64,000 bases of DNA from Gemmatimonadota bacterium. GTDB taxonomy: Bacteria > Gemmatimonadota > Gemmatimonadetes > Gemmatimonadales > JACORV01. The DNA lies in the NCBI GenBank assembly GCA_041484135.1, contig JBGPHD010000001.1, forward strand, positions 844 to 64,843, in the 5' to 3' direction. Below, one piece after another: positions 38,721 through 62,441 of the stretch (the stretch's first letter is position 1; each line of letters begins with the position of its first letter). The notes under the pieces are model-generated. The model worked only from the letters and a program-made list of their open reading frames with translations, did no database searches and had not been told where the DNA came from. A program made the position numbers and the translations under genes.

Positions 38721-39119
38721 CTAGGGCTTGATGACGGAGAGAACGTAACCCGTGGTGTCGAGGGGCGTATAGTCCGCGGCGATGACGTCCAGGACCCGCG
38801 CCGAGAAGGACGCGGCCTTGGAGACGTCGCTCACCCGGATGCGCACCAGGCTGCCGGTGGGGAGCGTCTGGCCCGCGGGCGCGATGAGCGTAACGTGGGC
38901 GCTGTCCCCGGCGAACAGATGGAACACGATGGCGTAGGTCGCGCCGGCGGGCACCGTGACGGCCGATACCCTCCCCTTCACCGACACGAGCATCGCGCGC
39001 TCGAGCCCGGTGTTGGGCGAGGTGAGCCGCACCGAGAGATCGCCCGCGGTGGGGCCGCTGTCGGAGCAGGCCGCGAGCCCGGCGAGGAGCGCGGCGGCCG
39101 CATAACGCTTCGGGTTCAC
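38721..39119 (-). CDS. Small lipoprotein of unknown function, coupled to the M6 peptidase
   Basis: Trimmed to the GTG at 39119, which overlaps the peptidase TGA (GTGA). Signal KRYAAAALLAGLAACSDSG. About 110 aa of beta-rich mature protein. Confidence 0.5.
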   Translation of the reverse strand: MNPKRYAAAALLAGLAACSDSGPTAGDLSVRLTSPNTGLERAMLVSVKGRVSAVTVPAGATYAIVFHLFAGDSAHVTLIAPAGQTLPTGSLVRIRVSDVSKAASFSARVLDVIAADYTPLDTTGYVLSVIKP

Positions 39120-41371
39120 CGGCGCACCCTCCCCAGCACCCGCGCCATCACTGCCGCGTTCACCGTGGTCCCCGAGCGGTCGAGCCACGCCACGAAGTCA
39201 CCGAGATCGAAGGTCCCGTTGGCGTTCCCCTGGCTGTCCAGCAGCTGCCGCTGGATGTCGGTGAGGCCGGTGCCCTGGAGGAGCTGGGCCACCGCGCTGT
39301 CGAGGAGCAGCGGCGCGAAGGTCACGGTGACGGCGTACGGCCGGCTCGCGCTGAGCACGAGGCTGGGATCGAAGCCGGCGGCGTCGCCGTCCCACTCGAC
39401 GAACATGTTCTGCGGGGAGGGGTGCGCCGTCAGGGTGATGGTGGCGGTCGAGAGCACCATCGCCGTGTCGGCGGCCAGCGCCGCGGGTGACCCCGTCACA
39501 GTGCCGTTCCCAACCCGCGTGACGGCGACCCGGTTGAACGTCGCCAGCTGCGCGATCAGCGTCACCGGCGCGCTGGGCGTCACGATGACCGTCTGGGTGC
39601 GCGTTCCCGCGTTGCTCCAGCTGCGATACTCGAAGCGCGTGGCTCCGGCGGCGATCGACTGCACCGAGTCGATCGAGACGGTCAATGTCTCCGTCGCGAA
39701 GAGCGGGCTCTGGTAGTCGCTGTACGCCACGCCGTTCACCTTCACCATCGCCGAGGGGTCGCTGGCGCGGATCCGGCTGCCCAGCACGAGCCGGAAGGCC
39801 ATCGCGCCGAACGGGGTCACCTGCCGGATCGAGTCGATCTGGATGCTCGTCGGCAACCCGGAGTTGAGCTTCGCCGCGGGATTGGTCGTGGCATCGAACA
39901 CGGTGTTGCCGGACGAACCGGGGAACGGATCGCCCGCGTCGCCCCGGTTGGCGCCCAGGCCGAGATGGTCGAAGCCGTCGGCCTGCATGAGGCGGAGCGC
40001 GTTAGGCTGGACCGCGTTCACGGTGTTGGACCCGAGACGCTGGCGCATGAGCAGGGAATCCACGTGCCAGATCAGCAGTCCGGGGCCCGCGAGGTTGGTG
40101 TCCGAGCCCAGGCGCTGCCGGTTCTCCAGCAGGAAGTACTCGTTGCTCGCGGGGATGGGGACGATGAAGGCCGTGTCGTTGGTCTCGATCGGGCTCGCCT
40201 GGGTCGTCCCCGGCGAGGTGAGGGGCACCTCGGTGATCCAACCCAGATCGGCGCGCGTCCAGGCGCTCATGTGTGCCGGCCGGTCCCAGAGCTGCTGGTT
40301 GCCCGACGCCATCAGGTCCCAGTGCCCGTCGCCCTCGTTGGCGTCGTTCGGGTTGGTGTCGTAGAGGTCCGGCAGGCCGAACAGGTGTCCCGTCTCGTGC
40401 GTGATGGTCCCGATCGCGATCGGCGCGCCCGGGGTGCAGCCCGCCGACCCGCCCTCGTAGCTCTGGATGATGTAGTCGTCGATCTTGATGAACTGCCCCT
40501 GGCGCTGCGGGTCGGGATCGTTCGTCTGGAGCGGCGCGCCCGTCCAGCCGCTGTAGCTGAAGCGGTGCGACCAGATACTCCGGGCCGCCAGCGAGGTCCT
40601 GAGGTAGCACTCACCGCCGACGATCGGATGCAGGAACGCGGTCGCATCCACGTAGCCGTCGCCGTTCAGGTCGTACTGCGCGAAGTTCACCTGCGCGTCC
40701 ACTGCCGCCACCGCCTCGGCGATGAGCTGCGAGACCTTGCTGCCCCCGAAGCAGAGGCCCTGGCACGAGCCGGGGCCCGAGTACACGGTGTCGTTCGCGG
40801 CGAGGCGGATCCCGCGATTGACGACCGTGCCGGTCACGGTCATCCGGTTCCGCGACACCTCCTGGTAGTACGTCGTCACCGAATACGGCGGCGCCGGCGC
40901 CGTGCCCCAGAGCCGGTTCTGCGCGGTGGCGCTGTCGAAGCTCGTGGTGTCGATGGTGTTGGCGTACCACACGATGAACGTGGGCATCTTGAGCGTGCCC
41001 GTGACCGCGGTGGCGCCGGGAGCGAGCACGGTGCGCGCCGCGGACGGGCCGGGCGCGCGCGAAGGCGCAGGACTGGCGTTGAGGAGGTTCCACGCGCGGC
41101 GCGACCGCAGCGCCTGTCGCCGGTCCCTCACGCGCTGCGCCTGCTCGAGCCAGCCGTGACGGAAGGCGAACGCCCGCGGGTCGCGCGTGACCATGTCGAA
41201 GAAGCCGGGCCCCGGCCGCGCCCCGCCATTGTCTCGGCCGCGGCGCAGGATGTCCGCCACGCCCGACTGCGCGTGCGCCGGCGCCGCGCCGACCGTCAAA
41301 GCGAGGAGCACGCCCACCGCGACGCCGTGCCGCGTCCGTCCCAAGACCCTCGGGCGACTACGCTGCTTCAT
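39116..41371 (-). CDS. M6 family metallopeptidase (immune inhibitor A-like)
   Basis: 751 aa. Signal VAVGVLLALTVGAAPAHAQ. Zinc site GTITHETGHLFGLPDLYD. C-terminal Ig-like region and a dockerin/EF-hand-like DSQGNANGTFDLGDFVAWL. Confidence 0.85.
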   Translation of the reverse strand: MKQRSRPRVLGRTRHGVAVGVLLALTVGAAPAHAQSGVADILRRGRDNGGARPGPGFFDMVTRDPRAFAFRHGWLEQAQRVRDRRQALRSRRAWNLLNASPAPSRAPGPSAARTVLAPGATAVTGTLKMPTFIVWYANTIDTTSFDSATAQNRLWGTAPAPPYSVTTYYQEVSRNRMTVTGTVVNRGIRLAANDTVYSGPGSCQGLCFGGSKVSQLIAEAVAAVDAQVNFAQYDLNGDGYVDATAFLHPIVGGECYLRTSLAARSIWSHRFSYSGWTGAPLQTNDPDPQRQGQFIKIDDYIIQSYEGGSAGCTPGAPIAIGTITHETGHLFGLPDLYDTNPNDANEGDGHWDLMASGNQQLWDRPAHMSAWTRADLGWITEVPLTSPGTTQASPIETNDTAFIVPIPASNEYFLLENRQRLGSDTNLAGPGLLIWHVDSLLMRQRLGSNTVNAVQPNALRLMQADGFDHLGLGANRGDAGDPFPGSSGNTVFDATTNPAAKLNSGLPTSIQIDSIRQVTPFGAMAFRLVLGSRIRASDPSAMVKVNGVAYSDYQSPLFATETLTVSIDSVQSIAAGATRFEYRSWSNAGTRTQTVIVTPSAPVTLIAQLATFNRVAVTRVGNGTVTGSPAALAADTAMVLSTATITLTAHPSPQNMFVEWDGDAAGFDPSLVLSASRPYAVTVTFAPLLLDSAVAQLLQGTGLTDIQRQLLDSQGNANGTFDLGDFVAWLDRSGTTVNAAVMARVLGRVRR

Positions 41372-41450: not shown

Positions 41451-42206
41451 TCACTGCACCGCGTGCCACCGCGGCGCCGTCCAGCCGATCGCCGTGCCCA
41501 GCGCCGCGCCCGCGATCACGTCGGTCGGGAAATGCTCGTGCGCCGCCACGCGGAACACCCCGGTGGCCGTCGCCGCCACGAAGAGCGCCACGACCTCGGT
41601 CCGATGCCGCCGGAGCACACCCCGCCGGTGCAGGATGGACGCGACCGCCGCCGCCGCCGCGAAGGCCTGGCTGGTGTGTCCCGACGGGAACGAGAGCCCG
41701 TTGCCCGCTGCCGGGTAGCTGAGCGCCGCCGACGAGTAGCGCAACGGCCGAGGCCGGTGCACCAGCACCTTCGCCCACGCGGTCGCCGCTGAGGCGAGCC
41801 CCATGGCTTCCGAGAACACGACGAGATCCTCGACCCTCGCCGCGCTCGGCTCCCCCCGGCGGCTGGTGAGGAGCAGCCCGATCCCGCCCAACGTCGCGCC
41901 CGCGAGCGCGATGTCGCTCCCGAGCGCCGGCCCCGACTTGAAGGTGCCGATCGAGCCGCGGTCGATGCCCCACAGATTCGCGGGGTTGCAGGGCGCGCAG
42001 GTCGCGTGCGGGAGGCTGTTCCGGAAGACCATCGGCACCAGCGTGAGGGCCGCCTCGCCCCCGAGGATGGCGGCGTCGGGCCAGCGGTGGACCTGGAACC
42101 GCAGAGGCGCGGGAACCTGTTGTGCCCATGCAGGTAACACGGCACCCAGGAGGACGATGAATCCCGCCGCGGCGGTGTTCCGTAACTTGATAAACCGCAT
42201 CGTCAT
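41451..42206 (-). CDS. Secreted/membrane PAP2 (type 2 phosphatidic acid phosphatase) family protein
   Basis: Only the last 251 codons of track ORF 41451..43388 are real; start at ATG 42206. Signal MTMRFIKLRNTAAAGFIVLLGAVLPAWAQQ. PAP2 motifs KVLVHRPRP, SFPSGHTS, RVAAHEHFPTDV. Confidence 0.8.
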   Translation of the reverse strand: MTMRFIKLRNTAAAGFIVLLGAVLPAWAQQVPAPLRFQVHRWPDAAILGGEAALTLVPMVFRNSLPHATCAPCNPANLWGIDRGSIGTFKSGPALGSDIALAGATLGGIGLLLTSRRGEPSAARVEDLVVFSEAMGLASAATAWAKVLVHRPRPLRYSSAALSYPAAGNGLSFPSGHTSQAFAAAAAVASILHRRGVLRRHRTEVVALFVAATATGVFRVAAHEHFPTDVIAGAALGTAIGWTAPRWHAVQ

Positions 42207-42215
42207 CGGTACAAT
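42187..42215 (+). promoter_or_regulatory. Sigma70-like promoter TTGATA-N17-TACAAT for the spt operon
   Basis: TTGATA at 42187..42192, exactly 17 nt, then TACAAT at 42210..42215, 22 nt before GTG 42237. Lies inside the 5' codons of the divergent PAP2 gene. Best consensus match seen in the window. Confidence 0.45.
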
Positions 42216-42236
42216 CCGCCCAGTCCGTCTCATCGT

Positions 42237-43460
42237 GTGGAGGAGTCCGTGGCCACGACGCATGTCGCGCACGACGTCGCGTTGTTCGAGAAGTGCAAGA
42301 ACTTCACCCGGGCTCGCGAAGTCCAGGCGATGGGGCTGTACCCGTACTTCACGCCGATCCACGAGTCGGAAGATACGATCGTCAAGATCGACGGCAAGAC
42401 AAAGGTGATGATGGGGTCGAACAACTACCTCGGCCTCACCCACCATCCCAAAGTGCTCGAGGCCGCCGAGGCGGCCCTTCATAAGTATGGCTCCGGCTGC
42501 ACCGGGAGCCGGTTCCTCAACGGCACCCTCGACCTGCATGAGATCCTCGAGGCGAAGCTCGCCGAGTTCCTTGGCAAGGAAACCTGCCTCGTCTTCTCGA
42601 CCGGGTACCAGGCCAACCTCAGCCTCGTGTCGGGACTGGTGGGCCGCGGCGAGAACATCTATCTCGACAAGCTCGACCACGCGTCCATCGTGGACGGCGC
42701 CAAGCTCTCGCACGGCGAGGTGCTGCGCTTCAACCACGGGGATCTCGGCAACCTTGAGCGCAAGCTGGCGCGCGACGACCGGCCGAAGGGCGCGATGATC
42801 GTCGTGGACGGCGTCTATTCCATGGAAGGCGACATCGCCGACCTGCCGCACCTGGTGCCGATCGCGCAGCGCTACGGCGTGGCGCTGGCGGTGGACGACG
42901 CCCACTCGGTGGGCGTCCTCGGCCCCACGGGCGCCGGCACCGCCGAGCACTTCGGCATGACCGACGAGGTGGACCTCATCGCCGGCACCTTCTCCAAGTC
43001 CCTGGCCTCCATCGGCGGCTTCGTGGCGGGCGCCGACTACGTCATTCACTACCTCAAGCATCACGCGCGGCCGCTGATCTTCACCGCGGCGCTGCCGGCC
43101 TCGAACACGGCGGGCGTGCTGGCGGCGCTGGAGATCCTGCGCACCGAGCCGGAGCGCCGTGCCGCGCTCTGGGAGAACACCCGGCGCCTCCAAGACGGGC
43201 TCCGCTCGCTCGGCTTCGATATCGGCCACACCTGCACGCCGATCGTGCCGGTGCTGATCGGCCCGCTGGAGAGGACCTTCGTCTACTGGCGGAAGCTCTT
43301 CGACGCCGGCGTGTTCACCAATCCGGTGGTGCCGCCCGCGGTGCCGCCCTCGCAGTGCCGGCTCCGCGCCAGCGTCATGGCGACGCACACCGCGGACCAG
43401 GTGGACTTCGCGCTGGACGCCTTCGGGACGATCGGCCGCGAGCTGGGAGTGATCTCCTGA
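42237..43460 (+). CDS. spt: Alpha-oxoamine synthase, serine palmitoyltransferase-like
   Basis: 407 aa (GTG 42237 or GTG 42249). NNYLGLTHHP, GSRFLNGT, VVDGVYSMEGDIADL, VDDAHSVGVLG, PLP-Lys GTFSKSL. The C-terminal RASVMATHTADQV...GVIS tracks Sphingomonas SPT as I recall it. Confidence 0.8.
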   Translation: MEESVATTHVAHDVALFEKCKNFTRAREVQAMGLYPYFTPIHESEDTIVKIDGKTKVMMGSNNYLGLTHHPKVLEAAEAALHKYGSGCTGSRFLNGTLDLHEILEAKLAEFLGKETCLVFSTGYQANLSLVSGLVGRGENIYLDKLDHASIVDGAKLSHGEVLRFNHGDLGNLERKLARDDRPKGAMIVVDGVYSMEGDIADLPHLVPIAQRYGVALAVDDAHSVGVLGPTGAGTAEHFGMTDEVDLIAGTFSKSLASIGGFVAGADYVIHYLKHHARPLIFTAALPASNTAGVLAALEILRTEPERRAALWENTRRLQDGLRSLGFDIGHTCTPIVPVLIGPLERTFVYWRKLFDAGVFTNPVVPPAVPPSQCRLRASVMATHTADQVDFALDAFGTIGRELGVIS

Positions 43461-43468
43461 CCCAGGCC

Positions 43469-44584
43469 GTGACGGTCCGCCGCGTCGAGACCGCGGCCGA
43501 CCTCAAGCGCTTCATCGCATTCCCGTACCGGCTGCACCGGGGCGATCCCAACTGGGTCGCCCCGTTGCGCATGGACGTGAGGACGATGCTCTCCCGGGAC
43601 AAGAACCCCTTCTTCGCGCACGGCGAGGCGGACTATTTCCTCGCCGAGCGGGCGGGCGACGTGGCGGGGCGCATCGCCGCCATCCGGAACGACGCCCACA
43701 CCGCGTTCCACCCCGACGAGCCCACCCTCGGCTTCTTCGGGTTCTTCGAGAGCGTGAACGACCAGGCGGTGGCCGACGCCCTGATCGCGGCCGCGGCGGG
43801 ATGGCTGCGCGCCCGCGGCCTCACCGTGATGCGCGGCCCCGCCAGCCTCTCCACCAACGACGAGTGCGGCCTCCTGGTCGAGGGCTTCGACACCCCGCCC
43901 ACGATCCTCATGCCCCACAACCCGCCCTACTACGCCGAGCTGTTAGGCAGGGCCGGCTTCGTGAAGGTGATGGACCTGCTCGCCTACCAGGGCTCCGGGG
44001 ATGCCCCGCCCGCCCGCCTCCTCGAGGGGGCCCGCCGGCTCGCCGAACGCCACCGGATCACCCTCCGCCCGATGGACATGAGCCGCTACTGGGAGGACGT
44101 GGAGAAGATCCGGCAGCTCTACAACAGCGCCTGGGAGAAGAACTGGGGCTTCGTCCCGATGACGGACGAGGAGATGAACCACCTCGCCCGGCAGCTCAAG
44201 CCGGTGGTGGTCCCGGACCTCATCGTCTTCGCGGAGATGGACGGCGCGGTCATCGGGTTCGCCATCACGCTCCCCGACTTCAACCAGGCGCTGGCGAAGA
44301 ACCCGGACGGCCGGCTCTTCCCGTTCGGGCTCCTCAGGCTCCTCTGGCACAAGCGCCGGATCCGCCGCGCGCGTACCCTCACCCTGGGCGTGCTGCCGCG
44401 GTACCGGCGTCTGGGGGTGGACGCGCTGATGTACGAGTGGACCTGGCGCCACGGCAACGCGCACGGCCTCTTCTGGTGCGAGGCGAGCTGGCTCCTCGAG
44501 ACCAACCACGCCATCCGCAACGGCATGGAGCGGCTGGGATTCCGCGCCTACAAGACCTACCGGATGTACGACCGGCCGGTATGA
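43469..44584 (+). CDS. GNAT-fold acyltransferase, about 370 aa (candidate bacterial ceramide synthase)
   Basis: Real part of track ORF 43355..44584. Start GTG 43469, or the CTG 43457 that overlaps the spt TGA. FFGFFESVND...MRGPASLSTNDECGLLVEGF...LGVLPRYRRLGVDALM...EASWLLETN (acyl-CoA N-acyltransferase-like). Confidence 0.6.
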   Translation: MTVRRVETAADLKRFIAFPYRLHRGDPNWVAPLRMDVRTMLSRDKNPFFAHGEADYFLAERAGDVAGRIAAIRNDAHTAFHPDEPTLGFFGFFESVNDQAVADALIAAAAGWLRARGLTVMRGPASLSTNDECGLLVEGFDTPPTILMPHNPPYYAELLGRAGFVKVMDLLAYQGSGDAPPARLLEGARRLAERHRITLRPMDMSRYWEDVEKIRQLYNSAWEKNWGFVPMTDEEMNHLARQLKPVVVPDLIVFAEMDGAVIGFAITLPDFNQALAKNPDGRLFPFGLLRLLWHKRRIRRARTLTLGVLPRYRRLGVDALMYEWTWRHGNAHGLFWCEASWLLETNHAIRNGMERLGFRAYKTYRMYDRPV

Positions 44585-45540
44585 GAGCCTTCGTCACCGG
44601 CGCCACCGGATTCGTGGGCAGCCATCTCGCCGAGGCGTTGCTGGCGCGGGGGGACGCGGTCGTCTGCCTGGCGCGCCGTCCCGACGCGGCGGCGGCGCTG
44701 GCGGCGCGGGGCGCCGAGATCGTGCGCGGCACGCTCGAGGACGAAGCGGGCCTGGCGGGCGCGCTGGCGGGCGCCGAGGTCGTGTATCATGTCGCGGGGC
44801 TCACGGCCGGCAGCGAAGCCGAGTACGTCGCCGTGAACGAGGCCGGCACCCGCCGCCTAACGGAGGCGGCGCAGCGGCAGGCGCCCGCCGCGCGGTTCGT
44901 GTATGTGTCGAGCCAGGCGGCGGTGGGCCCCGGGCCGATGCTCGACGAGGACGCCCCGTGCCGGCCGGTGAGCCCGTACGGGCGGAGCAAGCTCGCGGGC
45001 GAGGCGGTGACGCGGGGATCGGGGCTGGCCTGGACGATCGTGCGGCCGTGCTCGGTCTACGGCCCGCGCGACCGTGCCTTCCTGACGGTCTTCAAGCTCA
45101 CGGCGAAGGGCCTGGCGCCGGTCTTCGGTCGAGGGAACCAGGAGTTGTCGCTGATCTACGCCCCCGACCTCTGCGGCGCGATCATCAAGGCCGGCACGCA
45201 GCCGGGCGCCGGCGGCCGTATCTATCATGTGGCGCACCCCGGCACCGTGACCTCTCGGGCGCTGGCCCTGGCCGTGGGCCGGGCGATGGGCCGGACCCCG
45301 TTGGTGATCCCCGTGCCGCGGCTCGCCGTGGAAGGACTGCTCGGCGTGGCGACGATGGTGCGGGCTTTGGTGCGGAAGCGTAGCGTGGTCAATCTCGGCA
45401 AGATCGACGAGTTCTTCGCGTCGGCCTGGACCTTCGACGTGGGCCGCGCCGAGCGGGAGCTGGACTGGCGCGCCGCGCACGACCTCGCGTCGGGCCTGGG
45501 CGAGACGGCGGCGTGGTATCGGGCGGAGGGATGGCTGTGA
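44581..45540 (+). CDS. NAD(P)-dependent epimerase/dehydratase-family SDR (candidate ceramide reductase)
   Basis: Real part of track ORF 43801..45540. The ATG at 44581 overlaps the upstream TGA (ATGA). MRAFVTGATGFVGSHL Rossmann motif. Catalytic YGRSK. Confidence 0.75.
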   Translation: MRAFVTGATGFVGSHLAEALLARGDAVVCLARRPDAAAALAARGAEIVRGTLEDEAGLAGALAGAEVVYHVAGLTAGSEAEYVAVNEAGTRRLTEAAQRQAPAARFVYVSSQAAVGPGPMLDEDAPCRPVSPYGRSKLAGEAVTRGSGLAWTIVRPCSVYGPRDRAFLTVFKLTAKGLAPVFGRGNQELSLIYAPDLCGAIIKAGTQPGAGGRIYHVAHPGTVTSRALALAVGRAMGRTPLVIPVPRLAVEGLLGVATMVRALVRKRSVVNLGKIDEFFASAWTFDVGRAERELDWRAAHDLASGLGETAAWYRAEGWL

Positions 45541-46400
45541 CCGGACGCCGGGGCGTGACCGCGACCGACAAGGTGATGCTCGCCTTTCTCGCCGCGAACA
45601 CCGCGGTCGTGGTCTGGCACGCCCCGGTGATCGGGGCCTGGCCGTGGCTCCTCGTCGGCAACGCGCTGGCGGTGGCGCTGATCGTGCTGCTCCAGCGCGC
45701 GCCGGTGACGCCGTTCCTCGCGTTCATGGGCGGCGGCTACGGCCTGATCCTCACCCTGGCCTTCTACACCCAGCTCGGCATCATCGAACTGGACGTGGCC
45801 AGCGTGCGCGACGCGATGGTGCAGCGGTGGGAGGCGGCGCTCTTCGGGGGCGAGGTGAGCGTGACCTGGCACGCGCTGATGCCGAACCTCACGCTCTCGT
45901 GGATCCTGCATTTCTGCTACGGCGCGTACTACTGGATCGTGGCGGCGGCGACCTACTGGCTCTTCTTCCGCGCGCCGCGGGGCGCCTTCGAGCGGGGGAT
46001 GTTCCTGCTGACGCTGGGATTCTACGCCTGCTACGTGATCTACTCGCTGCTCCCGGTGGCGGGCCCGCGCTACTTCTACGGCAGCGCGACAGGACCGATC
46101 ACCACGGTGCTCCCCGCGCGCATCGTCCACCGGCTCCTCGAGGGCGGGTCCGCGTACGGCACCGCGTTCCCGTCCTCGCACGTCACGGCATCCTGGTGCG
46201 CGGTGCTGGCCCTCTGGCGGGACGCGCGGAAGGTCGCCCTGCTGCTCGCGCCGGTGGCCCTCGGACTGGCGTTCGGCACCGTGTACGGCCAGTTCCATTA
46301 CGGCGTGGACGCGATCGCCGGCGCCGCGCTCGCCCTCTTCCTCTACTTCGTGAGCGAGCCGCTCAGACTGGCTTTGCGACCGGCCGTTCCACCGTCGTAG
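45531..46400 (+). CDS. PAP2_3/Aur1-like integral membrane phosphotransferase
   Basis: About 289 aa with 6 or more TM segments. Start ATG 45531 or GTG 45537 (GGAGG upstream; overlaps the SDR stop). Motifs FPSSHVTASW and GQFHYGVDAIAG fit the PAP2 C2/C3 boxes of inositol-phosphorylceramide/sphingomyelin synthase-type enzymes. Confidence 0.65.
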   Translation: MAVTGRRGVTATDKVMLAFLAANTAVVVWHAPVIGAWPWLLVGNALAVALIVLLQRAPVTPFLAFMGGGYGLILTLAFYTQLGIIELDVASVRDAMVQRWEAALFGGEVSVTWHALMPNLTLSWILHFCYGAYYWIVAAATYWLFFRAPRGAFERGMFLLTLGFYACYVIYSLLPVAGPRYFYGSATGPITTVLPARIVHRLLEGGSAYGTAFPSSHVTASWCAVLALWRDARKVALLLAPVALGLAFGTVYGQFHYGVDAIAGAALALFLYFVSEPLRLALRPAVPPS

Positions 46401-49436: not shown

Positions 49437-49499
49437 AAGAGGAGAAGCGTTGAAGGTTGAATAAAGAGAGGCGTTGAAAGGGGTTACCTTCAACGCCTC
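49430..49499 (+). repeat. GCGTTGAA repeat cluster (3 direct copies, 1 degenerate, 1 inverted)
   Basis: gcgttgaa at 49430, 49447 and 49471. ggttgaa at 49455. The inverted copy ttcaacgc at 49489. Relatively AT-rich intergenic island that starts on the stop codon of the upstream gene. Confidence 0.8.
49468..49499 (+). terminator. Hairpin, candidate intrinsic terminator
   Basis: GAGGCGTTGAA (49468..49478) pairs perfectly with TTCAACGCCTC (49489..49499) across a 10-nt interior. It is followed by TCTTCTTCGTTCC and lies 32 nt after the stop at 49436. Confidence 0.45.
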
Positions 49500-49578
49500 T
49501 TCTTCGTTCCCCCCTCCGTGTGCAAGTCCCCGCCACCCAGGCGTCCCCCTTCCAGACACTCAACTGGGAGGTTTCACC

Positions 49579-51831: not shown

Positions 51832-52332
51832 ACGAGCGACATCGGTGAGCTGTACACGAAGTATCACGGTTCGCTCGTCCGGCTGCTGTACCGCCGGACG
51901 GGCGACCGTGACCATGCGGAGGACCTGGCCCAGGAGGTGTTCGTCAGGGCCATGGAAGCGCCGCCCCAGAACCCGAAGCCGTGGCTCTTCGCGGTGGCGC
52001 TGAACCTGGTGCGCGACGACGGACGTCGCGCGGTGCGGCAGGAACGGAAGCTGGCGCTGCTCAAGGGCGAGCAGGGTGAGGCCTCGGCGCCGGCCGCGGA
52101 TGACGAAGTCGAGCGAGGCGAGCGGATCGAGGCGGTGCGGGCGGCGCTGGCGCAGTTGTCGGAGAACGACCGTGAGGCGCTGCTGCTCAAGGCCGAGGGG
52201 TTCAACTACGACGAGATCGCGTCGGCCCTGGGGCTCGCCAAGGGCGCGATCGGGACCACCCTGGCGCGCGCGCGACGCCGCCTGGTGGAGGCGTACCGCG
52301 CAAAGGGAAGGATGAGGGATGTCGCACGTTGA
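51832..52332 (+). CDS. ECF-type sigma-70 factor; start codon unresolved (coordinates give the open frame after the upstream TAA)
   Basis: Own translation from 51832: TSDIGELYTKYHGSLVRLLYRRTGDRDHAEDLAQEVFVRAMEA...PWLFAVALNLVRD (region 2), then ENDREALLLKAEGFNYDEIASALGLAKGAIGTTLARARRRL (region 4). The first canonical start (GTG 51937, used by the track) would delete region 2.1/2.2. Confidence 0.7.
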   Translation, partial: TSDIGELYTKYHGSLVRLLYRRTGDRDHAEDLAQEVFVRAMEAPPQNPKPWLFAVALNLVRDDGRRAVRQERKLALLKGEQGEASAPAADDEVERGERIEAVRAALAQLSENDREALLLKAEGFNYDEIASALGLAKGAIGTTLARARRRLVEAYRAKGRMRDVAR

Positions 52333-53779
52333 CGATGGGCAGCTGAACGCGCTCCTGGACGGAGAGCTCGCCCCGGCCGATGCCCAGGCGATCGAGGCGC
52401 ACGTCGCCTCGTGCGCCGTGTGCGCCCGGCGGCTCGAGGAGGCGCGGCAGTTCCTGGCCGAATCGTCGAGCCTGCTCGATGTGCTCGTCCCGCCGGAGCT
52501 GCCCGTGGCTCGTCCCGAGGTCCCGGCGCCCGCGGCAGGTCTCGTCGGCGCCACGCCGGTCGCGCCCGCCCTGGACCTCGCGCCCGCGGTGCCCGCGCCC
52601 GCCGCGGGCGGCGAGCGCCGCCCCACCAGGACGGCGAAGGAGGTCGCGCTCGACATCGACGGCTCCACCCAGAAGAGCCCGGCGATCCGGCCCATCTTCC
52701 CGCGCGAAGTGGAGCGCCGCGCCGCGGCCGCCGCCGAGGAGAGCACGAAGGGCGCGCCCAAACGGCGCGTCGATTGGACGCAGCTCGCCTGGGCGGCGAC
52801 GGTCGTGCTGGCCATGGGCGTCACGTGGATGGTGAGCGAGATCCGCCACGCCGGCGGTGCGCCTTCCGCCGAGCGGGTCGCGGTGAACGACGGTGCCTCA
52901 ACAGCGACGGCGGCGCGCGAGCCGGCGGCCGCGGTCGCCACCGGCCCTGCCGCGGGTGCCGGCGCGCACCGGCGCGCGGCGCCGCCGCCGCGCGCGGTGG
53001 CCACCAAGCCACCTAACGCCCGGGGCAACAAGCCGCTCCCGGCCGAGGACGCGACCCCGATCGGCCGGACGGGCGCGCTCGCCAGCAGGGCGCGCGACCA
53101 GGCCGGATTGGACCGTGCCAGCGCGCCGGCAGCCATGGGCGCGATGCAGGCCCCCGCCCCGCCCGCGCCGGTCGCTCCCACCACGCCTCGGCAGCAACCG
53201 CCGACCGCCGCCGCGAACCAGGAGCGTGGCGAGCGCCTCGCGCCGCCCACCGCCTCGCCCCTGGCCGGCGCGGCGGGCGTCGGGGGCGCGGGCGCCCCGG
53301 CGGCTCCGGCGGCCCGCGCGCCCTCCGCGGACCTGCTCGGACGCGCCGTCCGCCGCGACACCGCGCGCGAGGAGGTGCTCACATCCTTCCGCCGTATCAC
53401 GCTCGACCAGGCGGCGCGCCGCCTTTCCGGCGCCATCCGCCTCATCGACGGGCGTCCCTGGGACCACGTCGAGGTGGGGCCGGGCCGGCTCGTCCCGGGC
53501 TCCGACCGGCTCCATGACGTGGTCCGGGTCTTCTATTTCGACGATCGGGGCCGCCCGCTGATCCTTGATCAGCAGCGCATCCCCGCGCCGGCGGACACGG
53601 CGGGCGAGGCGCGGGCCGCCATCGGGACGCTCGGCATGGCGCCCGGCGACACGTTGGTCACGACCGCGCCGAGCGGCCTGACGCGCATCCGGTGGCTCGA
53701 CCGGAAGTACTTCTGGCTGAGCTTGTCGGGGAACATGCCGGCGGACAGCCTGCGCATGCTGGTGGTGCGGGTGAGATAA
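52319..53779 (+). CDS. Membrane anti-sigma factor (zf-HC2 N-terminus, long Ala/Pro-rich region, C-terminal domain)
   Basis: 486 aa. The ATG overlaps the sigma 3' end by 14 nt. MSHVDDGQLNALLDGEL...HVASCAVC. TM WAATVVLAMGVTWMV. About 200 aa of Ala/Pro-rich low complexity. Confidence 0.7.
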   Translation: MSHVDDGQLNALLDGELAPADAQAIEAHVASCAVCARRLEEARQFLAESSSLLDVLVPPELPVARPEVPAPAAGLVGATPVAPALDLAPAVPAPAAGGERRPTRTAKEVALDIDGSTQKSPAIRPIFPREVERRAAAAAEESTKGAPKRRVDWTQLAWAATVVLAMGVTWMVSEIRHAGGAPSAERVAVNDGASTATAAREPAAAVATGPAAGAGAHRRAAPPPRAVATKPPNARGNKPLPAEDATPIGRTGALASRARDQAGLDRASAPAAMGAMQAPAPPAPVAPTTPRQQPPTAAANQERGERLAPPTASPLAGAAGVGGAGAPAAPAARAPSADLLGRAVRRDTAREEVLTSFRRITLDQAARRLSGAIRLIDGRPWDHVEVGPGRLVPGSDRLHDVVRVFYFDDRGRPLILDQQRIPAPADTAGEARAAIGTLGMAPGDTLVTTAPSGLTRIRWLDRKYFWLSLSGNMPADSLRMLVVRVR

Positions 53780-55168: not shown

Positions 55169-57040
55169 ATGCCGACCGAACTCAAGTGCCCGCGCTGCAA
55201 TGCAGCGGTCCCGGAGACGAGCCGATTCTGCTCGACCTGCGGGGCGGCGGTCACCAATCCGGGCGATACGGGGGGGTCCTCTTCCGACCGTCTCAGTGAT
55301 TCCGGCGCGCTCCAGCTCAAGATCCTGCTGCTCGAGGAAACCAAAGGCGAGTACGAGATCGAGGACGAGCTCGGCCGCGGGGGCATGGCGGTGGTCTACA
55401 AGGCGCGCGAGGTCCACCTCGCGCGTGAGGTCGCCCTCAAGGTGCTGCCGCCCGAGCTGACCTTCGGCAAGGGCGCGATCGAGCGCTTCAAGCGTGAGGC
55501 AAAGACCGCGGCCGCGCTCGATCATCCCAACATCATCCCGATCTACCGCATCACGCCCGGCGGCCGGCTCTTCTGGTACGCGATGAAGTTCCTCGAGGGC
55601 CACTCGCTCGCGGACATCCTCGAGGAGAAGGGCCTGCTCACCGTCCCCGAGACGGTCGCCATCCTCGAGCAGGTGGCCGAGGCGCTCGATTACGCCCACC
55701 AGCGCAGCGTCATCCACCGGGACGTGAAGCCCGGCAACGTCATGCTCGACGCCCGGGGCCGGGTCATCATGACCGACTTCGGGATCGCCAAGGAGCTGCA
55801 GAGCGGCGCGCTCACCGGCTCGGGCGCGATCCTCGGCACCCCGTATTACATGTCCCCCGAACAGTGTCGCGGCGGGACCCTCACCGGCGCGGCGGACCAG
55901 TACTCACTTGGCATCATGGCGTACCAGATGCTGAGCGGCCACCTGCCCTTCGAGGCCGAGTCCGCGATCGACCTCTTGCACAAGCACTGCGTGGAGCCGC
56001 CGCCCCCGCTCGAGGCGCTGCTGCCTTCGCTCCCCAAGCACGTCATCGCCGCGGTGAACCGCTCGGTGTCGAAGAAGGCGGAGGAGCGCTACCCCACGGT
56101 CACGGCGTTCGTGAACGCGATGAAGGGCCAGGCCACGGTCGGCCAGGGGGACGCGACGCTGATCATGCACCGGCGCGCGTCGGTCAAGGCGAAGCTCAGC
56201 GAGCTCGCGACGGCCCAGAAGAAGCCGTCGAGGCTCAGGTCCATCGGGCAGCTCGTGGTCGGGATCGTGGCGGTGGGCGGTCTCGTGGCCGGCAGCGTCT
56301 GGTTCGCCACGCGCGGCCAGGAGAGCGCGCCCCAGGCCGGCGCGCCGGCGCCGCAGCGGACCGACAGCGCGACCCCGGCGCCGGTGCCGGCCGCCCCGAC
56401 GACGGGCCTGGTCACGGTCGAGAGCCTGCCCGCCGGCGGCAAGGTCACGATCGACGGGCGCGACACGACGGGCGCGTCGTTCACGTTGAGCAAGGGCCCG
56501 CACGTTCTCGGTCTTTTGGCGACGGGCTTCGAACCGATGGTTGATTCGGTGACGCTGGCCGGCGGCGATACCAGCCGGGTGGTGTTCAACGCGCGCCGGC
56601 TCACGCCGCCGCCGGCGCCCAGGAACGACCGTGCCGCCGCGGACCGCGCGGCCGGCGCGCGCCGTGACTCCATCAACCGGGCCAACAGGCTCGCTGCGAC
56701 GGCACGCGCCGAATCGGTCCGCCGCGCCAACCGCACCCGCGATTCCCTCGCCGCGATAGCGACGCGGGCCCGCCGCGACTCCGCCACCGCCCCGCCGGTC
56801 GCCGCCGGGAAGGGTTACGTGCGCGTGACGCTGACCGGTGGCTTCGGCGACATCACGGTGGACGGCGCCCCCCGGCGTTCGGGCCTCGGTTGGGCAGACT
56901 CCCTCCCCGCTGGCGGCCACGTGATCTCGGTCACTCGCGCCGGCGGGTGGACCGCTGAGCCGGCGTCGCGCCGGATCACCGTGCGCGCGGGCCAGGACCA
57001 GACCTTCACTTTCGTTATGCGCCCGCCGAGCACTCCGTGA
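55169..57040 (+). CDS. Ser/Thr protein kinase with N-terminal zinc ribbon, one TM and extracytoplasmic PEGA-like domains
   Basis: Trimmed to the ATG at 55169. CPRCNAAVPETSRFCSTCG. GRGGMAVVYKA, VALKVL, HRDVKPGNVML, DFGIAK, GTPYYMSPEQ. TM LVVGIVAVGGLVAGSVWFA. PEGA-like GLVTVESLPAGGKVTIDG and GYVRVTLTGGFGDITVDG. Confidence 0.85.
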   Translation: MPTELKCPRCNAAVPETSRFCSTCGAAVTNPGDTGGSSSDRLSDSGALQLKILLLEETKGEYEIEDELGRGGMAVVYKAREVHLAREVALKVLPPELTFGKGAIERFKREAKTAAALDHPNIIPIYRITPGGRLFWYAMKFLEGHSLADILEEKGLLTVPETVAILEQVAEALDYAHQRSVIHRDVKPGNVMLDARGRVIMTDFGIAKELQSGALTGSGAILGTPYYMSPEQCRGGTLTGAADQYSLGIMAYQMLSGHLPFEAESAIDLLHKHCVEPPPPLEALLPSLPKHVIAAVNRSVSKKAEERYPTVTAFVNAMKGQATVGQGDATLIMHRRASVKAKLSELATAQKKPSRLRSIGQLVVGIVAVGGLVAGSVWFATRGQESAPQAGAPAPQRTDSATPAPVPAAPTTGLVTVESLPAGGKVTIDGRDTTGASFTLSKGPHVLGLLATGFEPMVDSVTLAGGDTSRVVFNARRLTPPPAPRNDRAAADRAAGARRDSINRANRLAATARAESVRRANRTRDSLAAIATRARRDSATAPPVAAGKGYVRVTLTGGFGDITVDGAPRRSGLGWADSLPAGGHVISVTRAGGWTAEPASRRITVRAGQDQTFTFVMRPPSTP

Positions 57041-60000
57041 GGCTGCGGCACGCCCGCGTGGTGCCCGCCGTCCTCTTCATTCTCGCTCTCATCCTGTCTC
57101 CGGTGGGCATCGCGCGCGCGCAGGGCGCGCGCGACTCCCTCCGGGCGGGCCACGCGGCCTACGACCGCGCCGACTTCACGAACGCGGCACGGCTCCTCGC
57201 GGCCGGTCTCGACCCCGCCGCCGGCCCGCGTGACAGCCTCTGGATCTCCGGCGTTCACAAGCTGACCGACGCGTTGCTCGAGCTTCAGCGCGACACCCTC
57301 GCCGGCCTCTGGCTCCGCTGGGCCAACCGGGTGGCGCCGGGCTTCGCGGTGGACTCGAACAACTTCACGCCGCGGGTCACCTCCGCGATCCTCGCCGCAC
57401 GGGCCGCGCTCCGCCCGGTGGGCGACGACAGCCTGGTCGAGACGACGTGGGAGTTCACCGGGGAGACCTCGCCGGGCCGGGGCGCGCTGCGCGTCCAACG
57501 CGGCCCGGTCAACTTCGTGGGCGCCGCCATCGACAGCGTCATCACGGCGCTGCCGGGCGAGCGGACGACGCTGGCCGCCGGCATCCACACCGTCCGGGTG
57601 GCGGAGACCGGGTACCGTCCCGTGCGCGTGGCGCGCGAGGTCCTGCCCGGTGTGACCACGAACGTCCGCGTCCGGCTGGTACGGATCGCCCCGGCGCCGG
57701 TCGTGCCGCCCGTGGCGGTCAACGGAACGCCCGCCACCCCGGCGACGCCCGTCACCGTCAGCGGGCCAACCCTGAGCGCCGGCGGCGGCGCCACATGCGA
57801 CGCGTTAGGCGCGGGGACCTTCTGCTGGGGCGCCAACGGGGCCGGCCAGCTCGGCGCGGGGACGAACGAGGCCCTCGTGGCGCCGGTCCTCGTCGCGGGG
57901 ACCCAGGTCTTCGTGACCGTGAGCATGGGGACGTCGCACGCCTGCGCGCTCAACCGCACCGGCAACGCGTTCTGCTGGGGCGCGAACGCCGCCGGCCAGC
58001 TCGGCAGCGGGCAGACCACCAACAGCGCCTCCCCGGTGGCCGTCGCCGGCACCCAGGTCTTCCAGGCCATCGCGGTCGGCGCCGCCCATAGCTGCGGCCT
58101 CACCGCCGCCGGCGCGGTGTTCTGCTGGGGCGCGAACACCGCCGGCCAGCTCGGGACCCGCACCACCACCAACAGCAACATCCCCGTGGCCGTGCCCCTC
58201 GCCGCGGGCCTCTCGTTCCGGTCGATCGTGGCGGCGGGCGGACACACCTGCGCGCTCACCGCCGCCGGAGCCGCTTGGTGCTGGGGCTCCAACACCAACG
58301 GTGAGCTGGGCATCGGGACCGTGGCCAACGCCAACACCCCGACCGCCGTGGCCGGCGGCGTGGTCTTCAAGGCGCTCACGGCGGGCACCAATCACACCTG
58401 CGGCCTCACCCGCGAGGGCGCCGCGCACTGCTGGGGCTCGAACGCGAACGGCCAGCTCGGCGTCGGGCCGATGTCCGCGAGCCCCCGGCCCGCGCCGGTC
58501 CAGGACGCGCTCGTCTTCCAGAGCCTCCAGGCCGGCGAGGCCCACACCTGCGGCATCACGACCACCGGCGCCACCTATTGCTGGGGCGCCAACCGCTCCG
58601 GGCAGCTCGGCAACGGCCAGACCGCCGACAGCCCGAGGCCGGTGGTGGTGGCGGGGGGCCAGACCTTCGTCGCGCTCGCAGCGGGGACCGCGCACTCCTG
58701 CGGCGCCACCGCGGAGGGCGTGGTCTGGTGCTGGGGCGACAACGCGTCCTCGCAGCTGGGGCAGATGGCGGGCAGGACGAGCGGTGCCGCCGTGCCCATC
58801 GTCACGCGGACGACCGCGCGGGCGGGCGGCACGGTGCTCCCGGTCAACGCGTGGAACGCGCTGCGGATCCCGGCCCCGGTGCGCCTCGAGCGTGTCTGGG
58901 CCGCGCCCGGCGGCGCGGGCGGCCAGTACGCGGTGGGCGAGCGCGGGACCATCGTGCGCTCCACCGACGGCGCCACCTGGACGCCGATGACCAGCGGCTC
59001 GAGCCTGCCGCTCTTCACCGTGTGGGGGGCCTCGGCCACCGACGTGTTCGCGGGGGGCGAGAGCGGCACGGTGCTGCGGTTCGACGGCCGCGCGTGGACC
59101 TCGGTGCGCTCGGGTGACGCGGGCGAGGCGATCTACGAGCTGTGGGGCACCGACGCCTCGTGCGTGTACGGCGTGGGGCGGCACGGGCTCGTGGTCAAGT
59201 TCGACGGCTCGAGGTGGCGGACCATCCCGAGCGGCACGACCCAGGACCTCTGGGGCGTGTGGGGCGCCTCGTGCAACGACGTCATCGCGGTGGGAGCCGC
59301 CGGCACCATCCTCCGGATCGACGGCACCGCGGCGCGCGCGATGCCGAGCGGCACGACCCAGCTGCTCGAATCGGTGTGGGGCACCTCGGCGACCAACGCG
59401 ATCGCCGTCGGCGACGGCGGCACCGTGGTGCGCCTCCTCGGCGCGGCGTGGGCCGCGATGCCGGGCGTCACGACCCAGAGCCTCCTCGGGGTGGCCGGAT
59501 CGTCCTCCACCGACGTCTACGCGGTCGGCGCGGGCGGGACGATCCTCCGGTTCAACGGATCGTCGTGGAGCGCGCTCACCAGCGGCAGCACGCAGACGCT
59601 CTGGAGCGTGGTCGCGGCCGGTGACGGGTCGGTCTATGCCTCGGGAGACGCCGGCACCATCCTCAAGGGCACCCGCGGCGCGGCGGCGATCGGTGCGAGC
59701 GTGCGGGAGGACTTCGCGGACGGCAACTACACCGCCGGCCCGGTCTGGACCCCCGACAGCACCGCCGGCGTCCGGCTCGAGGTCGTGGGCGGCGAGGCGC
59801 ACGTGGCGCGTGCCGGCTCGCGCGGCATCACCGGCACGGCGGGGCTCACGCTCGCCATGCTCGCCCCCGTGACGCCGGCGACCGCCATCCAGTTCGACGT
59901 CAAGGTAGGCGCGAGCGGCGTGCCGAACGGATGCGGCCTCAACTGCGCCGCGTATCCGGCCGTGGTGCGGGTGCGGGTCCGCAACAACAACCAGACCGAG

Positions 60001-60594
60001 TCCGAGGCGTGGTACGCCTTCAACGACGACGGCGGCCGCAGCCAGAGCCTCGCCAACGTCGTGATCGTGGCGCGCGGCGACGCGCCGGCCGGCCAGTGGC
60101 TCCGCAACCAGCGGTTCGTGATCCGGGAGGCGCTGCCCCGCGCCGACTCGATCATCCAGGTCTCGCTGGGGGGCGTCGGCACCGACTTCGACGGCTGGTT
60201 CGACAACCTCGTGTTTCCGGCGCCGGTCGTGGAGGCGCCGCCCCCGCCGCCGGTCCAGCCGGTGGCCCCGCCCCAGCCGGCCGGCCCGGTGCTCACCACC
60301 GTGGTCGTCACCCCGGACACCGCGACCTTCGTGGAGGCCGGCGCCACGCGGCGCCTCGCCGCGAGCGGCCAGGACCAGAGCGGCGCGCCGATGAGCTTGG
60401 CGCAGCCGGTGGTCTGGTCCAGCAGCGACACGGCGGTCGCGCTGGTGACCCCGACGGGACTCGTGATGGGAGTGACGAACGGGACGGCGACGATCCGGGC
60501 CAGGGTCGGCACGGTGACCGGGACGGCCACGGTGACGGTGCGGCTCCCGCGCGGCCGGCCCACCCGCCGGCCCACGCGCAGGCCTTCACCCTAA
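57037..60594 (+). CDS. Secreted multidomain protein: PEGA, 7-blade RCC1 propeller, second 7-blade propeller, jelly-roll-like domain, Big_2
   Basis: 1185 aa. The GTG overlaps the kinase TGA (GTGA). Signal VVPAVLFILALILSPVGIARAQG. Seven CWGxNxxGQLG repeats. Seven GxxGT(I/V)(L/V)RxDGxxW blades. C-terminal VVVTPDTATFVEAGATRRLAASGQDQSGAP...GTATIRARVG (Big_2). Confidence 0.8.
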   Translation: MRLRHARVVPAVLFILALILSPVGIARAQGARDSLRAGHAAYDRADFTNAARLLAAGLDPAAGPRDSLWISGVHKLTDALLELQRDTLAGLWLRWANRVAPGFAVDSNNFTPRVTSAILAARAALRPVGDDSLVETTWEFTGETSPGRGALRVQRGPVNFVGAAIDSVITALPGERTTLAAGIHTVRVAETGYRPVRVAREVLPGVTTNVRVRLVRIAPAPVVPPVAVNGTPATPATPVTVSGPTLSAGGGATCDALGAGTFCWGANGAGQLGAGTNEALVAPVLVAGTQVFVTVSMGTSHACALNRTGNAFCWGANAAGQLGSGQTTNSASPVAVAGTQVFQAIAVGAAHSCGLTAAGAVFCWGANTAGQLGTRTTTNSNIPVAVPLAAGLSFRSIVAAGGHTCALTAAGAAWCWGSNTNGELGIGTVANANTPTAVAGGVVFKALTAGTNHTCGLTREGAAHCWGSNANGQLGVGPMSASPRPAPVQDALVFQSLQAGEAHTCGITTTGATYCWGANRSGQLGNGQTADSPRPVVVAGGQTFVALAAGTAHSCGATAEGVVWCWGDNASSQLGQMAGRTSGAAVPIVTRTTARAGGTVLPVNAWNALRIPAPVRLERVWAAPGGAGGQYAVGERGTIVRSTDGATWTPMTSGSSLPLFTVWGASATDVFAGGESGTVLRFDGRAWTSVRSGDAGEAIYELWGTDASCVYGVGRHGLVVKFDGSRWRTIPSGTTQDLWGVWGASCNDVIAVGAAGTILRIDGTAARAMPSGTTQLLESVWGTSATNAIAVGDGGTVVRLLGAAWAAMPGVTTQSLLGVAGSSSTDVYAVGAGGTILRFNGSSWSALTSGSTQTLWSVVAAGDGSVYASGDAGTILKGTRGAAAIGASVREDFADGNYTAGPVWTPDSTAGVRLEVVGGEAHVARAGSRGITGTAGLTLAMLAPVTPATAIQFDVKVGASGVPNGCGLNCAAYPAVVRVRVRNNNQTESEAWYAFNDDGGRSQSLANVVIVARGDAPAGQWLRNQRFVIREALPRADSIIQVSLGGVGTDFDGWFDNLVFPAPVVEAPPPPPVQPVAPPQPAGPVLTTVVVTPDTATFVEAGATRRLAASGQDQSGAPMSLAQPVVWSSSDTAVALVTPTGLVMGVTNGTATIRARVGTVTGTATVTVRLPRGRPTRRPTRRPSP
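57790..58800 (+). repeat. Seven tandem RCC1-type coding repeats, period about 150 nt
   Basis: Recurrent tgctggggc(g/t)c(c/g)aac...ggccagctcgg near 57823, 57973, 58123, 58279, 58432, 58580 and 58730. Confidence 0.8.
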
Positions 60595-61902: not shown

Positions 61903-62441
61903 ATGCCCTGCAGCTGCCGCACGTAGTTCACGACGTGCCAGCGGTCCACGCCGCGGATCTTGTCGCCGTAGCGCGGCATGATGCCGCGGCCCTGGCGGAT
62001 CATCGCGTAGAGGTAGCCGTCGCTGCGCTGCTTGGTCATGTCGGTGACGAGCGGCGGGACGTAGCCCATCTTGCCCGCCACCGTGCCGTCGCCGGCCCCC
62101 GCCGGGCCGTGGCAGACGATGCAGTAGGTGTCGTAGATGCGGCGGCCTCGCGTCAGCGAGGCGGTCGTGCGGGCGGCCGGGTTCACGATCTGCCTGAGAT
62201 CGGTGGAGATGTCGAGCGAGTCCTCATGACCGGTCACGGGCACCGAGCCCACCGGCAGGGTGAGGGGGCGCGCCGCGCCGGGCGGCGCCTCGAAGGGCCG
62301 CGTCACCACCTGGTCCCGCATGGTGGTGAACCACGGCACCTTGCCGACCGCGTTGTCGAGCGTGGTGCATCCCGCCGCGCCGAGCGCCAGGCACACGGCG
62401 AGCGCCCCGCGCCCCGCGCCCCGCCCCGGCCGCTCAGACAT
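61899..62441 (-). CDS. actE: Alternative complex III monoheme cytochrome c lipoprotein ActE
   Basis: 180 aa. Lipobox LGAAGC. Single heme motif CIVCHG. Distal MPRYG. Confidence 0.8.
   Translation of the reverse strand: MSERPGRGAGRGALAVCLALGAAGCTTLDNAVGKVPWFTTMRDQVVTRPFEAPPGAARPLTLPVGSVPVTGHEDSLDISTDLRQIVNPAARTTASLTRGRRIYDTYCIVCHGPAGAGDGTVAGKMGYVPPLVTDMTKQRSDGYLYAMIRQGRGIMPRYGDKIRGVDRWHVVNYVRQLQGM

Follow-up and report, generated by a model that had tools for sequence, protein, structure and literature searches.

Introduction

Can bacteria of the phylum Gemmatimonadota make phosphosphingolipids? The question is raised by a compact four-gene operon in a 64,000-nt stretch of Gemmatimonadota DNA (hereafter the window; positions 844 to 64,843 of contig JBGPHD010000001.1, assembly GCA_041484135.1), which an earlier note, made from the letters of the window, had read as a route from serine to a phospho-sphingolipid. 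Here we report a computational analysis in which that reading is supported at the level of homology, fold and gene linkage. The operon quite probably represents the bacterial ceramide pathway of serine palmitoyltransferase (SPT; gene product Spt), a bacterial ceramide synthase (bCerS) and a ceramide reductase (CerR), together with a dedicated head-group enzyme, its chemistry being predicted from the sequences.

In Caulobacter crescentus, the three enzymes of this pathway are Spt (CC_1162), bCerS (CC_1154) and CerR (CC_1164) (Olea-Ozuna 2021; Stankeviciute 2022), and Escherichia coli BL21 carries an orthologous cluster (spt, ECD_02854; epi, ECD_02852; yghO, ECD_02850). The yghO cluster is missing from E. 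coli K-12. Bioinformatic predictions of the same set already extend over dozens of phyla (Ding et al.). The core of the operon is thus well supported as a further example of the published Spt-bCerS-CerR system rather than as a new type of system.

Gene organization and conservation

The window has a G + C content of about 72%, and its closest relatives are metagenome-assembled genomes of Gemmatimonadales. The operon consists of four tightly coupled open reading frames (ORFs) on the plus strand, which together span 42249-46400 with boundaries that agree with the public gene calls. An exact-sequence look-up found identical products of 403, 371, 319 and 287 aa, as well as a divergently encoded PAP2 protein of 251 aa, on the public 68,162-bp contig. 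Gene 1 (42249..43460, 403 aa), an spt-like alpha-oxoamine synthase (AOS), starts with GTG at 42249, preceded by GGAGGAG at 42239-42245, and ends with TGA at 43458-43460. After a gap of 8 nt follows the GTG start (43469) of gene 2 (43469..44584, 371 aa), a tandem-GNAT N-acyltransferase that belongs to the YghO/CC_1154 (bCerS) family, which overlaps by ATGA (44581-44584) with gene 3 (44581..45540, 319 aa), an extended short-chain dehydrogenase/reductase (SDR) of the epimerase/dehydratase family and a CerR-like candidate 3-keto reductase. The TGA of gene 3 (45538-45540) is overlapped by two possible starts of gene 4, ATG 45531 (289 aa) and GTG 45537 (287 aa, the public call). Gene 4 encodes a polytopic PAP2_3 (Aur1-like) protein, putatively a ceramide phospho-head-group transferase, and its 3' end at 46400 falls within a convergent K+ channel gene, so that the unit stops there.

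The ORFs and coupled junctions had been described correctly in the earlier note, except that its start of gene 1 at 42237 is replaced by 42249 in the public record and its 9-nt gap counts 8 nt. All motifs that it listed were found: gene 1 has RFLNGT, VVDGVYSMEGDIA, DDAHSVG, GTFSKS and a C-terminal ...GVIS, gene 3 has GATGFVGSHL and YGRSK, and gene 4 has FPSSH and HYGVD.

A scan of genome contigs returned Gemmatimonadota and Candidatus Eisenbacteria exclusively; both share the gene order, the former in about 70 genomes. Among 81 related loci, with the assessable ones as denominators, a homologue of gene 1 lies directly 5' of the gene 2 homologue in 73/74 loci, a homologue of gene 3 directly 3' of it in 74/75, and a homologue of gene 4 next after gene 3 in 65/69. 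This arrangement is far beyond chance. A natural AOS::GNAT fusion of 780 aa (P0124; L091, 8001-10343), which belongs to a cluster with three members of that length, ties the activities of genes 1 and 2 to one pathway; on the 819-kb metagenomic contig that encodes it (L091), an extended SDR gene precedes the fusion and a PAP2_3 gene follows.

Homologues of gene 4 are linked to homologues of gene 2 or gene 3 in four other lineages. In Candidatus Cloacimonas (L092, 7335-10074; L093, 5730-8469), genes for PlsY (a glycerol 3-phosphate acyltransferase), a bCerS-like GNAT and a PAP2_3 protein are consecutive and distant from any Spt gene. This arrangement may explain why no bCerS was seen near Spt in Cloacimonadota by Ding et al. 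Bacteroides and Prevotella are known makers of phosphosphingolipids. Bacteroides finegoldii (L094, 5979-7942) and Prevotella sp. oral taxon 299 (L095, 4675-6618) each have an overlapping extended SDR-PAP2_3 pair that is homologous to genes 3 and 4, and these SDR-adjacent genes of Bacteroidales were the only matches when 72,556 records of the plasmid collection were searched with gene 4. No inositol genes were found near either pair, nor was a functional description of the pairs. The SDRs of both pairs have a near-identical C-terminus, AWY(K/R)xEGWL. The proteins of the B. finegoldii pair have the accessions WP_022274854 and WP_237923849.

Genes 2 and 3

The product of gene 2, correctly predicted as a GNAT-fold protein of about 370 aa, matches Pfam weakly (PF00583, GNAT, in the C-terminal lobe) and had no match in NCBIfam or, by sequence or profile search, in the PDB. 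Its AlphaFold (AF2) model (predicted local distance difference test, pLDDT, 87.5) has a tandem GNAT fold, and the top PDB folds are tandem GNATs, MshD, FemX and N-myristoyltransferase. The family is large, with 1,676 clusters at 50% identity that match at E <= 1e-30.

In assessing the relationship to bCerS, E. coli orthologues (those of strain PN43, not BL21) and synteny took the place of the Caulobacter proteins themselves. Gene 2 is 37% identical to E. coli YghO over 387 columns and the full length (E 3e-77 at a database size of 1e8; 35-37% by tblastn of plasmid records), and 36% identical to an N-acetyltransferase of Sphingomonas parapaucimobilis whose gene adjoins lptF/lptG (E 2e-71). YghO is equated with CC_1154 by Padilla-Gomez et al. 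(2022; PMC9386255), who list 'aca: CC_1154, yghO ECD_02850' and 'epi: CC_1164, ECD_02852' and report that the E. coli SPT was active when assayed. Under the orthologue criterion of Ding et al. (E <= 1e-30, coverage >= 50%, database size 1e8), gene 2 falls within bCerS by a wide margin, as measured against YghO.

The neighbourhoods agree with this assignment. The neighbours of E. coli yghO are genes for an AOS, an acyl carrier protein (ACP), an SDR of the epimerase family and a fatty acyl-AMP ligase, together with paralogues of lptF/lptG. The S. parapaucimobilis homologue adjoins lptF/lptG, Spt, ACP and reductase genes, the Roseomonas homologue has a similar neighbourhood (lptF/lptG paralogues, Spt, AcpR, AasR and reductase), and the arrangement from CC_1154 to CC_1165 in Caulobacter is like that around E. 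coli yghO and the Sphingomonas GNAT gene. Gene 2 is therefore very probably a bCerS-family N-acyltransferase, for which N-acylation of 3-ketosphinganine or sphinganine is predicted. In E. coli PN43 (L083, 1343-9122), the complete set of Caulobacter type, with lptF/lptG paralogues, spt, acpR, a reductase gene, aasR and yghO, lies beside the glc operon; the 354-kb 'plasmid' of this strain and two 'plasmid' records of 4.8-4.9 Mb appear to be mislabelled chromosomal sequence in PLSDB.

Gene 3 had been called an epimerase-type SDR, and both the Pfam match (PF01370, E 1e-38) and the motifs GATGFVG (GxxGxxG) and YGRSK (YxxxK) confirm this. Its best matches in the plasmid database, ahead of HpnA, are the SDRs of the AOS-GNAT-SDR clusters of Rubrobacter (38% identity, E 1e-44) and Streptomyces (41%, E 9e-39). 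It is related to CerR via the E. coli orthologue (ECD_02852-type, 'epi', equated with CC_1164), with 30.5% identity across 311 aligned aa (E 2e-26, database size 1e8), and its NCBIfam pattern, with HpnA at about 100 bits and far under the cut-off, is that of the same E. coli protein. Since the Rossmann motif begins at residue 7, gene 3 appears to have no signal peptide. Membership of the CerR family is probable, though not clean. BT_0972, the KDSR of Bacteroides, was considered as a model of gene 3 but dropped, since this SDR (about 31 kDa) is of the classical and not the extended type.

Gene 4

Gene 4 scores 62.7 bits with the Pfam model PAP2_3 (PF14378), for which the gathering cut-off is 27. 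In a Foldseek search of the PDB with its AF2 model (pLDDT 92.6), the only matches at E <= 0.001 were 9vj4_A (template modelling score, TM, 0.65) and Aur1-Kei1 (9ivc_A), both inositol phosphorylceramide (IPC) synthases, which bears out the proposed PAP2_3/Aur1-like character. Residues S215-S216-H217, H256 and D260, which make up the C2 (SxH) and C3 (H..D) motifs, are invariant among 32 homologues. Helix order and charge distribution suggest a periplasmic orientation of the catalytic residues.

Among the alternatives to a head-group transferase, the one that survives best is that genes 1-3 make dihydroceramide and that gene 4 is a lipid phosphate phosphatase, acting on ceramide-1-phosphate or long-chain-base phosphate or in a housekeeping role. 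Bacterial members of the PAP2 superfamily are mostly hydrolases, gene 4 also has a weak match to PF01569 (E 8e-6), its lower-ranked folds (E >= 0.07) are phosphatases, including PgpB, LpxE and acid phosphatases, and four related loci manage without the gene. We nevertheless regard a phosphatase as unlikely, since the best Pfam model is that of the Aur1 family, the significant fold matches are confined to IPC synthases, and genes of this type are linked to ceramide genes in five lineages. Moreover, the hydrolase motif K-x6-RP was looked for in gene 4 and is absent, whereas the divergent PAP2 protein has it.

A transferase role has precedent in BT_1522, a bacterial Aur1 homologue that acts as phosphatidylinositol (PI)-dihydroceramide synthase. 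A literature search for a PAP2 gene linked to spt yielded nothing relevant.

Gene 1

Gene 1 matches PF00155 (Aminotran_1_2; E 1e-53), and SPT models rank first among the NCBIfam scores (SerpalmtaseCFB 523 bits, SPT-beta 415, bioF 387, Kbl 368, ALAS 250, CqsA 228). The SPT scores are below the equivalog cut-offs (523 vs 640 for the CFB model, 415 vs 500 for SPT-beta), as are the bioF and Kbl scores below theirs; as a control, the AOS of the E. coli yghO cluster exceeds the NCBIfam SPT cut-off. The best match in the PDB is the SPT of Sphingobacterium multivorum (425 bits, about 51% identity, full length), followed by Sphingomonas SPTs (about 303 bits), KBL/BioF (<=290) and cysteate-C-fatty acyltransferase (247), and the catalytic and pyridoxal phosphate (PLP) motifs GTFSKS, DDAHS and LDHAS align with those of the S. 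multivorum enzyme. In a neighbour-joining (distance) tree of 12 sequences, gene 1 and its orthologues group with S. multivorum SPT, the AOSs of the actinobacterial clusters, the E. coli SPT type and Sphingomonas SPT, and this clade is split from E. coli BioF and Kbl with a bootstrap value of 98.

The preference of the earlier note for SPT over BioF/KBL is thus upheld, but not its comparison with the Sphingomonas type, as gene 1 is nearer to the Bacteroidota type (51% identity to Sphingobacterium vs 38-41% to Sphingomonas). A Bacteroidetes/delta-proteobacterial SPT subgroup distinct from the AcpR-dependent subgroup has been described (PMC9386255), and by its sequence gene 1 is an SPT-like enzyme of this subgroup, with predicted substrate use.

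A second alternative concerns that substrate: gene 1 might use alanine, glycine or cysteate, and the products would be 1-deoxyceramides, a sulfonolipid or another N-acylated amino-lipid. Such a reading could draw on the sub-cut-off SPT scores, on cysteate-C-fatty acyltransferase as a recognizable PDB relative, and on bacterial SPT pathways that are known to give 1-deoxyceramides from alanine. It is distinctly improbable, as SPT is far ahead of the cysteate enzyme (425 vs 247 bits), gene 1 falls into one group with S. multivorum SPT and the cluster-linked AOS genes, its partner genes are homologues of bCerS and CerR, and an Aur1-like transferase requires a C1 hydroxyl, which only serine supplies.

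The reading of gene 1 as a mere BioF or Kbl with functionally unrelated neighbours is hardly credible: the bioF and Kbl scores (387 and 368 bits) and the name '8-amino-7-oxononanoate synthase', given in a JGI record to a member of its >=90%-identity cluster, are outweighed by the higher SPT scores, the low identity to E. coli BioF/Kbl (31-35% vs 51% to S. multivorum SPT), the absence of biotin or tdh genes among the neighbours, and the near-invariant synteny with GNAT and SDR genes and the known fusion protein. The protein in the JGI record is probably SPT-like and misnamed.

Proposed pathway

Homology, fold, gene linkage and a gene fusion were observed; the substrates, reaction order, topology and head group of the route are inferred. 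In an SPT-Aur1-like route, gene 1 would form 3-ketosphinganine by condensing L-serine and a long-chain acyl thioester, for which acyl-CoA is the likeliest candidate; gene 2 would N-acylate the long-chain base; and reduction of the 3-keto group by gene 3 would yield dihydroceramide. Which of N-acylation and 3-keto reduction comes first is disputed even in Caulobacter. With its His/His/Asp site, gene 4 would then take a phospho-alcohol head group off a glycerophospholipid and place it on the C1 hydroxyl of ceramide, with diacylglycerol set free. The best guess for the head group is phosphoethanolamine from phosphatidylethanolamine (PE), and phosphoglycerol or phosphoinositol would be possible.

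No genes for an ACP (AcpR), acyl-ACP synthetase (AasR), LptF2/LptG2 or a desaturase were found in the 64-kb window or in the flanks of about 80 related loci. In the case of AcpR and AasR, this makes acyl-CoA the likely acyl donor, which fits an SPT outside the Rhodobacteria subgroup. The lack of an ACP and acyl-ACP synthetase had been noticed before; the puzzle over the donor that was drawn from it dissolves, as the absence of an ACP is normal in this SPT subgroup and in the actinobacterial clusters.

Several points weigh against the proposed pathway. Extended SDRs are promiscuous, and PAP2 proteins can be hydrolases. Gene 1, whose scores stay under the NCBIfam SPT cut-offs, has to be called SPT-like, lies outside the curated clades and is not guaranteed to be specific for serine. 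The E value of gene 3 (2e-26) narrowly misses the 1e-30 of Ding et al., and the comparison with bCerS and CerR is the indirect one described above. Searches of the PDB with gene 4 by sequence and profile gave no match, including to the solved IPC synthases, to which its structural alignments have 17-18% identity. The gene is missing from four related loci, and in two of these (L040 and L077) no alternative head-group gene was found downstream. The literature provided no lipid data for this organism and no report of Gemmatimonadota sphingolipids; the claim that such lipids are uncharacterized in the lineage is less novel than supposed, given the multi-phylum prediction already published.

If the reading is right, the conserved and compact operon predicts sphingolipid production by Gemmatimonadota, which are abundant in soil. 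The four-gene cassette, which comes without an ACP, would be convenient for heterologous reconstitution, and the operon would correct the automatic label in a public database that calls a gene 1-type protein 8-amino-7-oxononanoate synthase. Gene 4 is the more useful lead: its recurrent association with ceramide genes, found in Gemmatimonadota and Eisenbacteria as well as in Cloacimonas and Bacteroidales, points to one PAP2_3 subfamily as candidate head-group transferase in bacterial phosphosphingolipid synthesis, a role that would include the PE-dihydroceramide of gut Bacteroides.

Promoter candidate and neighbouring genes

Upstream of gene 1 lies a sigma70-like promoter candidate, TTGATA-17-TACAAT (42187..42215, plus strand), with 10 of 12 consensus matches. 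It is the sole site on either strand of the window that passed the scan criteria, in agreement with the earlier note, which had placed the best promoter ahead of the operon; the scan uses the general sigma70 consensus, which may not be the rule in Gemmatimonadota. Since shuffled sequence yields about 0.4 sites of this quality per 12 kb, the existence of the candidate is not beyond chance, and its position 34 nt 5' of gene 1 is the sole telling, and at most suggestive, feature. The -35 hexamer overlaps the start-codon region of the divergent PAP2 gene.

This divergent gene (41451..42206, minus strand, 251 aa) encodes a canonical PAP2 lipid phosphatase (PF01569, E 6e-21) with a signal-peptide-like N-terminus and all three phosphatase motifs (K-x6-RP, PSGH and R-x5-H-x3-D). 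It had been included with the operon in the earlier note and is a real gene, but not a conserved part of the unit: it adjoins the operon in only 17/69 related loci and was dropped as a core component, leaving it as ancillary or a mere neighbour.

Further 5', genes for secreted M6 (immune inhibitor A-like) peptidases are found both in the window (38721-41371) and at a related locus whose gene 2 homologue is 64% identical (L001, 2512-7891); at both, small genes without a Pfam match lie between the M6 genes, which makes this a conserved neighbourhood. A few kb 3' of the operon (51832-53779) is a pair of genes for an extracytoplasmic function (ECF) sigma factor and a zf-HC2 anti-sigma factor, and such a pair also lies directly 3' of the three-gene cluster of L077 (6413-7865); it is possibly an envelope-stress regulator. 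The AT-richer intergenic region at 49437-49578, just 5' of the ATG (49579) at which a secreted VIT/vWA protein probably starts, contains four copies of GCGTTGAA, two of which form a 14-bp inverted repeat, AGAGGCGTTGAAAGG...CCTTCAACGCCTCT, that scored as terminator-like on the minus strand; a role as operator or terminator is conceivable. A gene for a Ser/Thr kinase that has PEGA and zinc-ribbon domains is followed by one for a 1,211-aa RCC1-repeat protein with a Big_2 domain (56959-60594), and the 3' end of the window (60607-63998) carries genes of alternative complex III (ActD, NrfD-like, cytochrome c).

Comparison with known systems

With Caulobacter and E. coli the operon shares an AOS, a YghO-type tandem GNAT and an NDUFA9/epimerase-type SDR (43%, 37% and 30.5% identity to the E. 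coli orthologues). Unlike in Caulobacter, where the genes are spread over several operons, the three are contiguous and translationally coupled, and the operon comes without dedicated AcpR/AasR, without LptF2/LptG2, and without the ceramide kinase and phosphoglycerate transferase genes for the head group. The SPT belongs to the Bacteroidota-type rather than the Rhodobacteria subgroup, and gene 3 has no recognizable signal peptide, whereas the CerR of Caulobacter is reported to be periplasmic (PMC11087976).

Among the loci examined, the closest partners are the actinobacterial clusters on plasmids of Streptomyces sp. NBC_01001 and Rubrobacter radiotolerans (gene 1, 48-53% identity; gene 2, about 42%; gene 3, 38-41%), which have the identical AOS-GNAT-SDR order and no ACP. 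They differ in the fourth gene: in place of a PAP2_3 protein, Streptomyces has one with a condensation domain and Rubrobacter one of the LTA-synthase family. Of the solved enzymes, S. multivorum SPT (PDB 3a2b, 8guh) is the best match of gene 1, with the PLP lysine (FSKS), DDAHS and DHAS in common; unlike the curated family of that enzyme, gene 1 scores below the CFB-SPT equivalog cut-off (523 vs 640).

Gene 4 resembles the Aur1-type IPC synthases (yeast Aur1-Kei1, 9ivc; the ceramide complex 9vj4; BT_1522) in its PAP2_3 domain, fold, C2/C3 motifs and association with ceramide genes; it differs in that no sequence similarity to the solved enzymes is detectable and no inositol-synthesis genes lie nearby. 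Its nearest Bacteroidales homologues, those of B. finegoldii and Prevotella, likewise lack the inositol-gene neighbourhood of BT_1522. As deletion of BT_1522 leaves PE-dihydroceramide intact, the SDR-adjacent PAP2_3 subfamily is a candidate for other head groups. We tentatively propose, as an idea with somewhat less than even chances, that gene 4 and its relatives in Cloacimonas, Bacteroides, Prevotella and L091 form a PAP2_3 subfamily distinct from BT_1522 that would be the long-missing synthase of non-inositol phosphosphingolipids (e.g. ceramide phosphoethanolamine or phosphoglycerol), that the extended SDR next to it would be the genuine CerR in bacteria of the Fibrobacterota-Chlorobiota-Bacteroidota (FCB) group, and that Gemmatimonadota would be unrecognized producers of such lipids.

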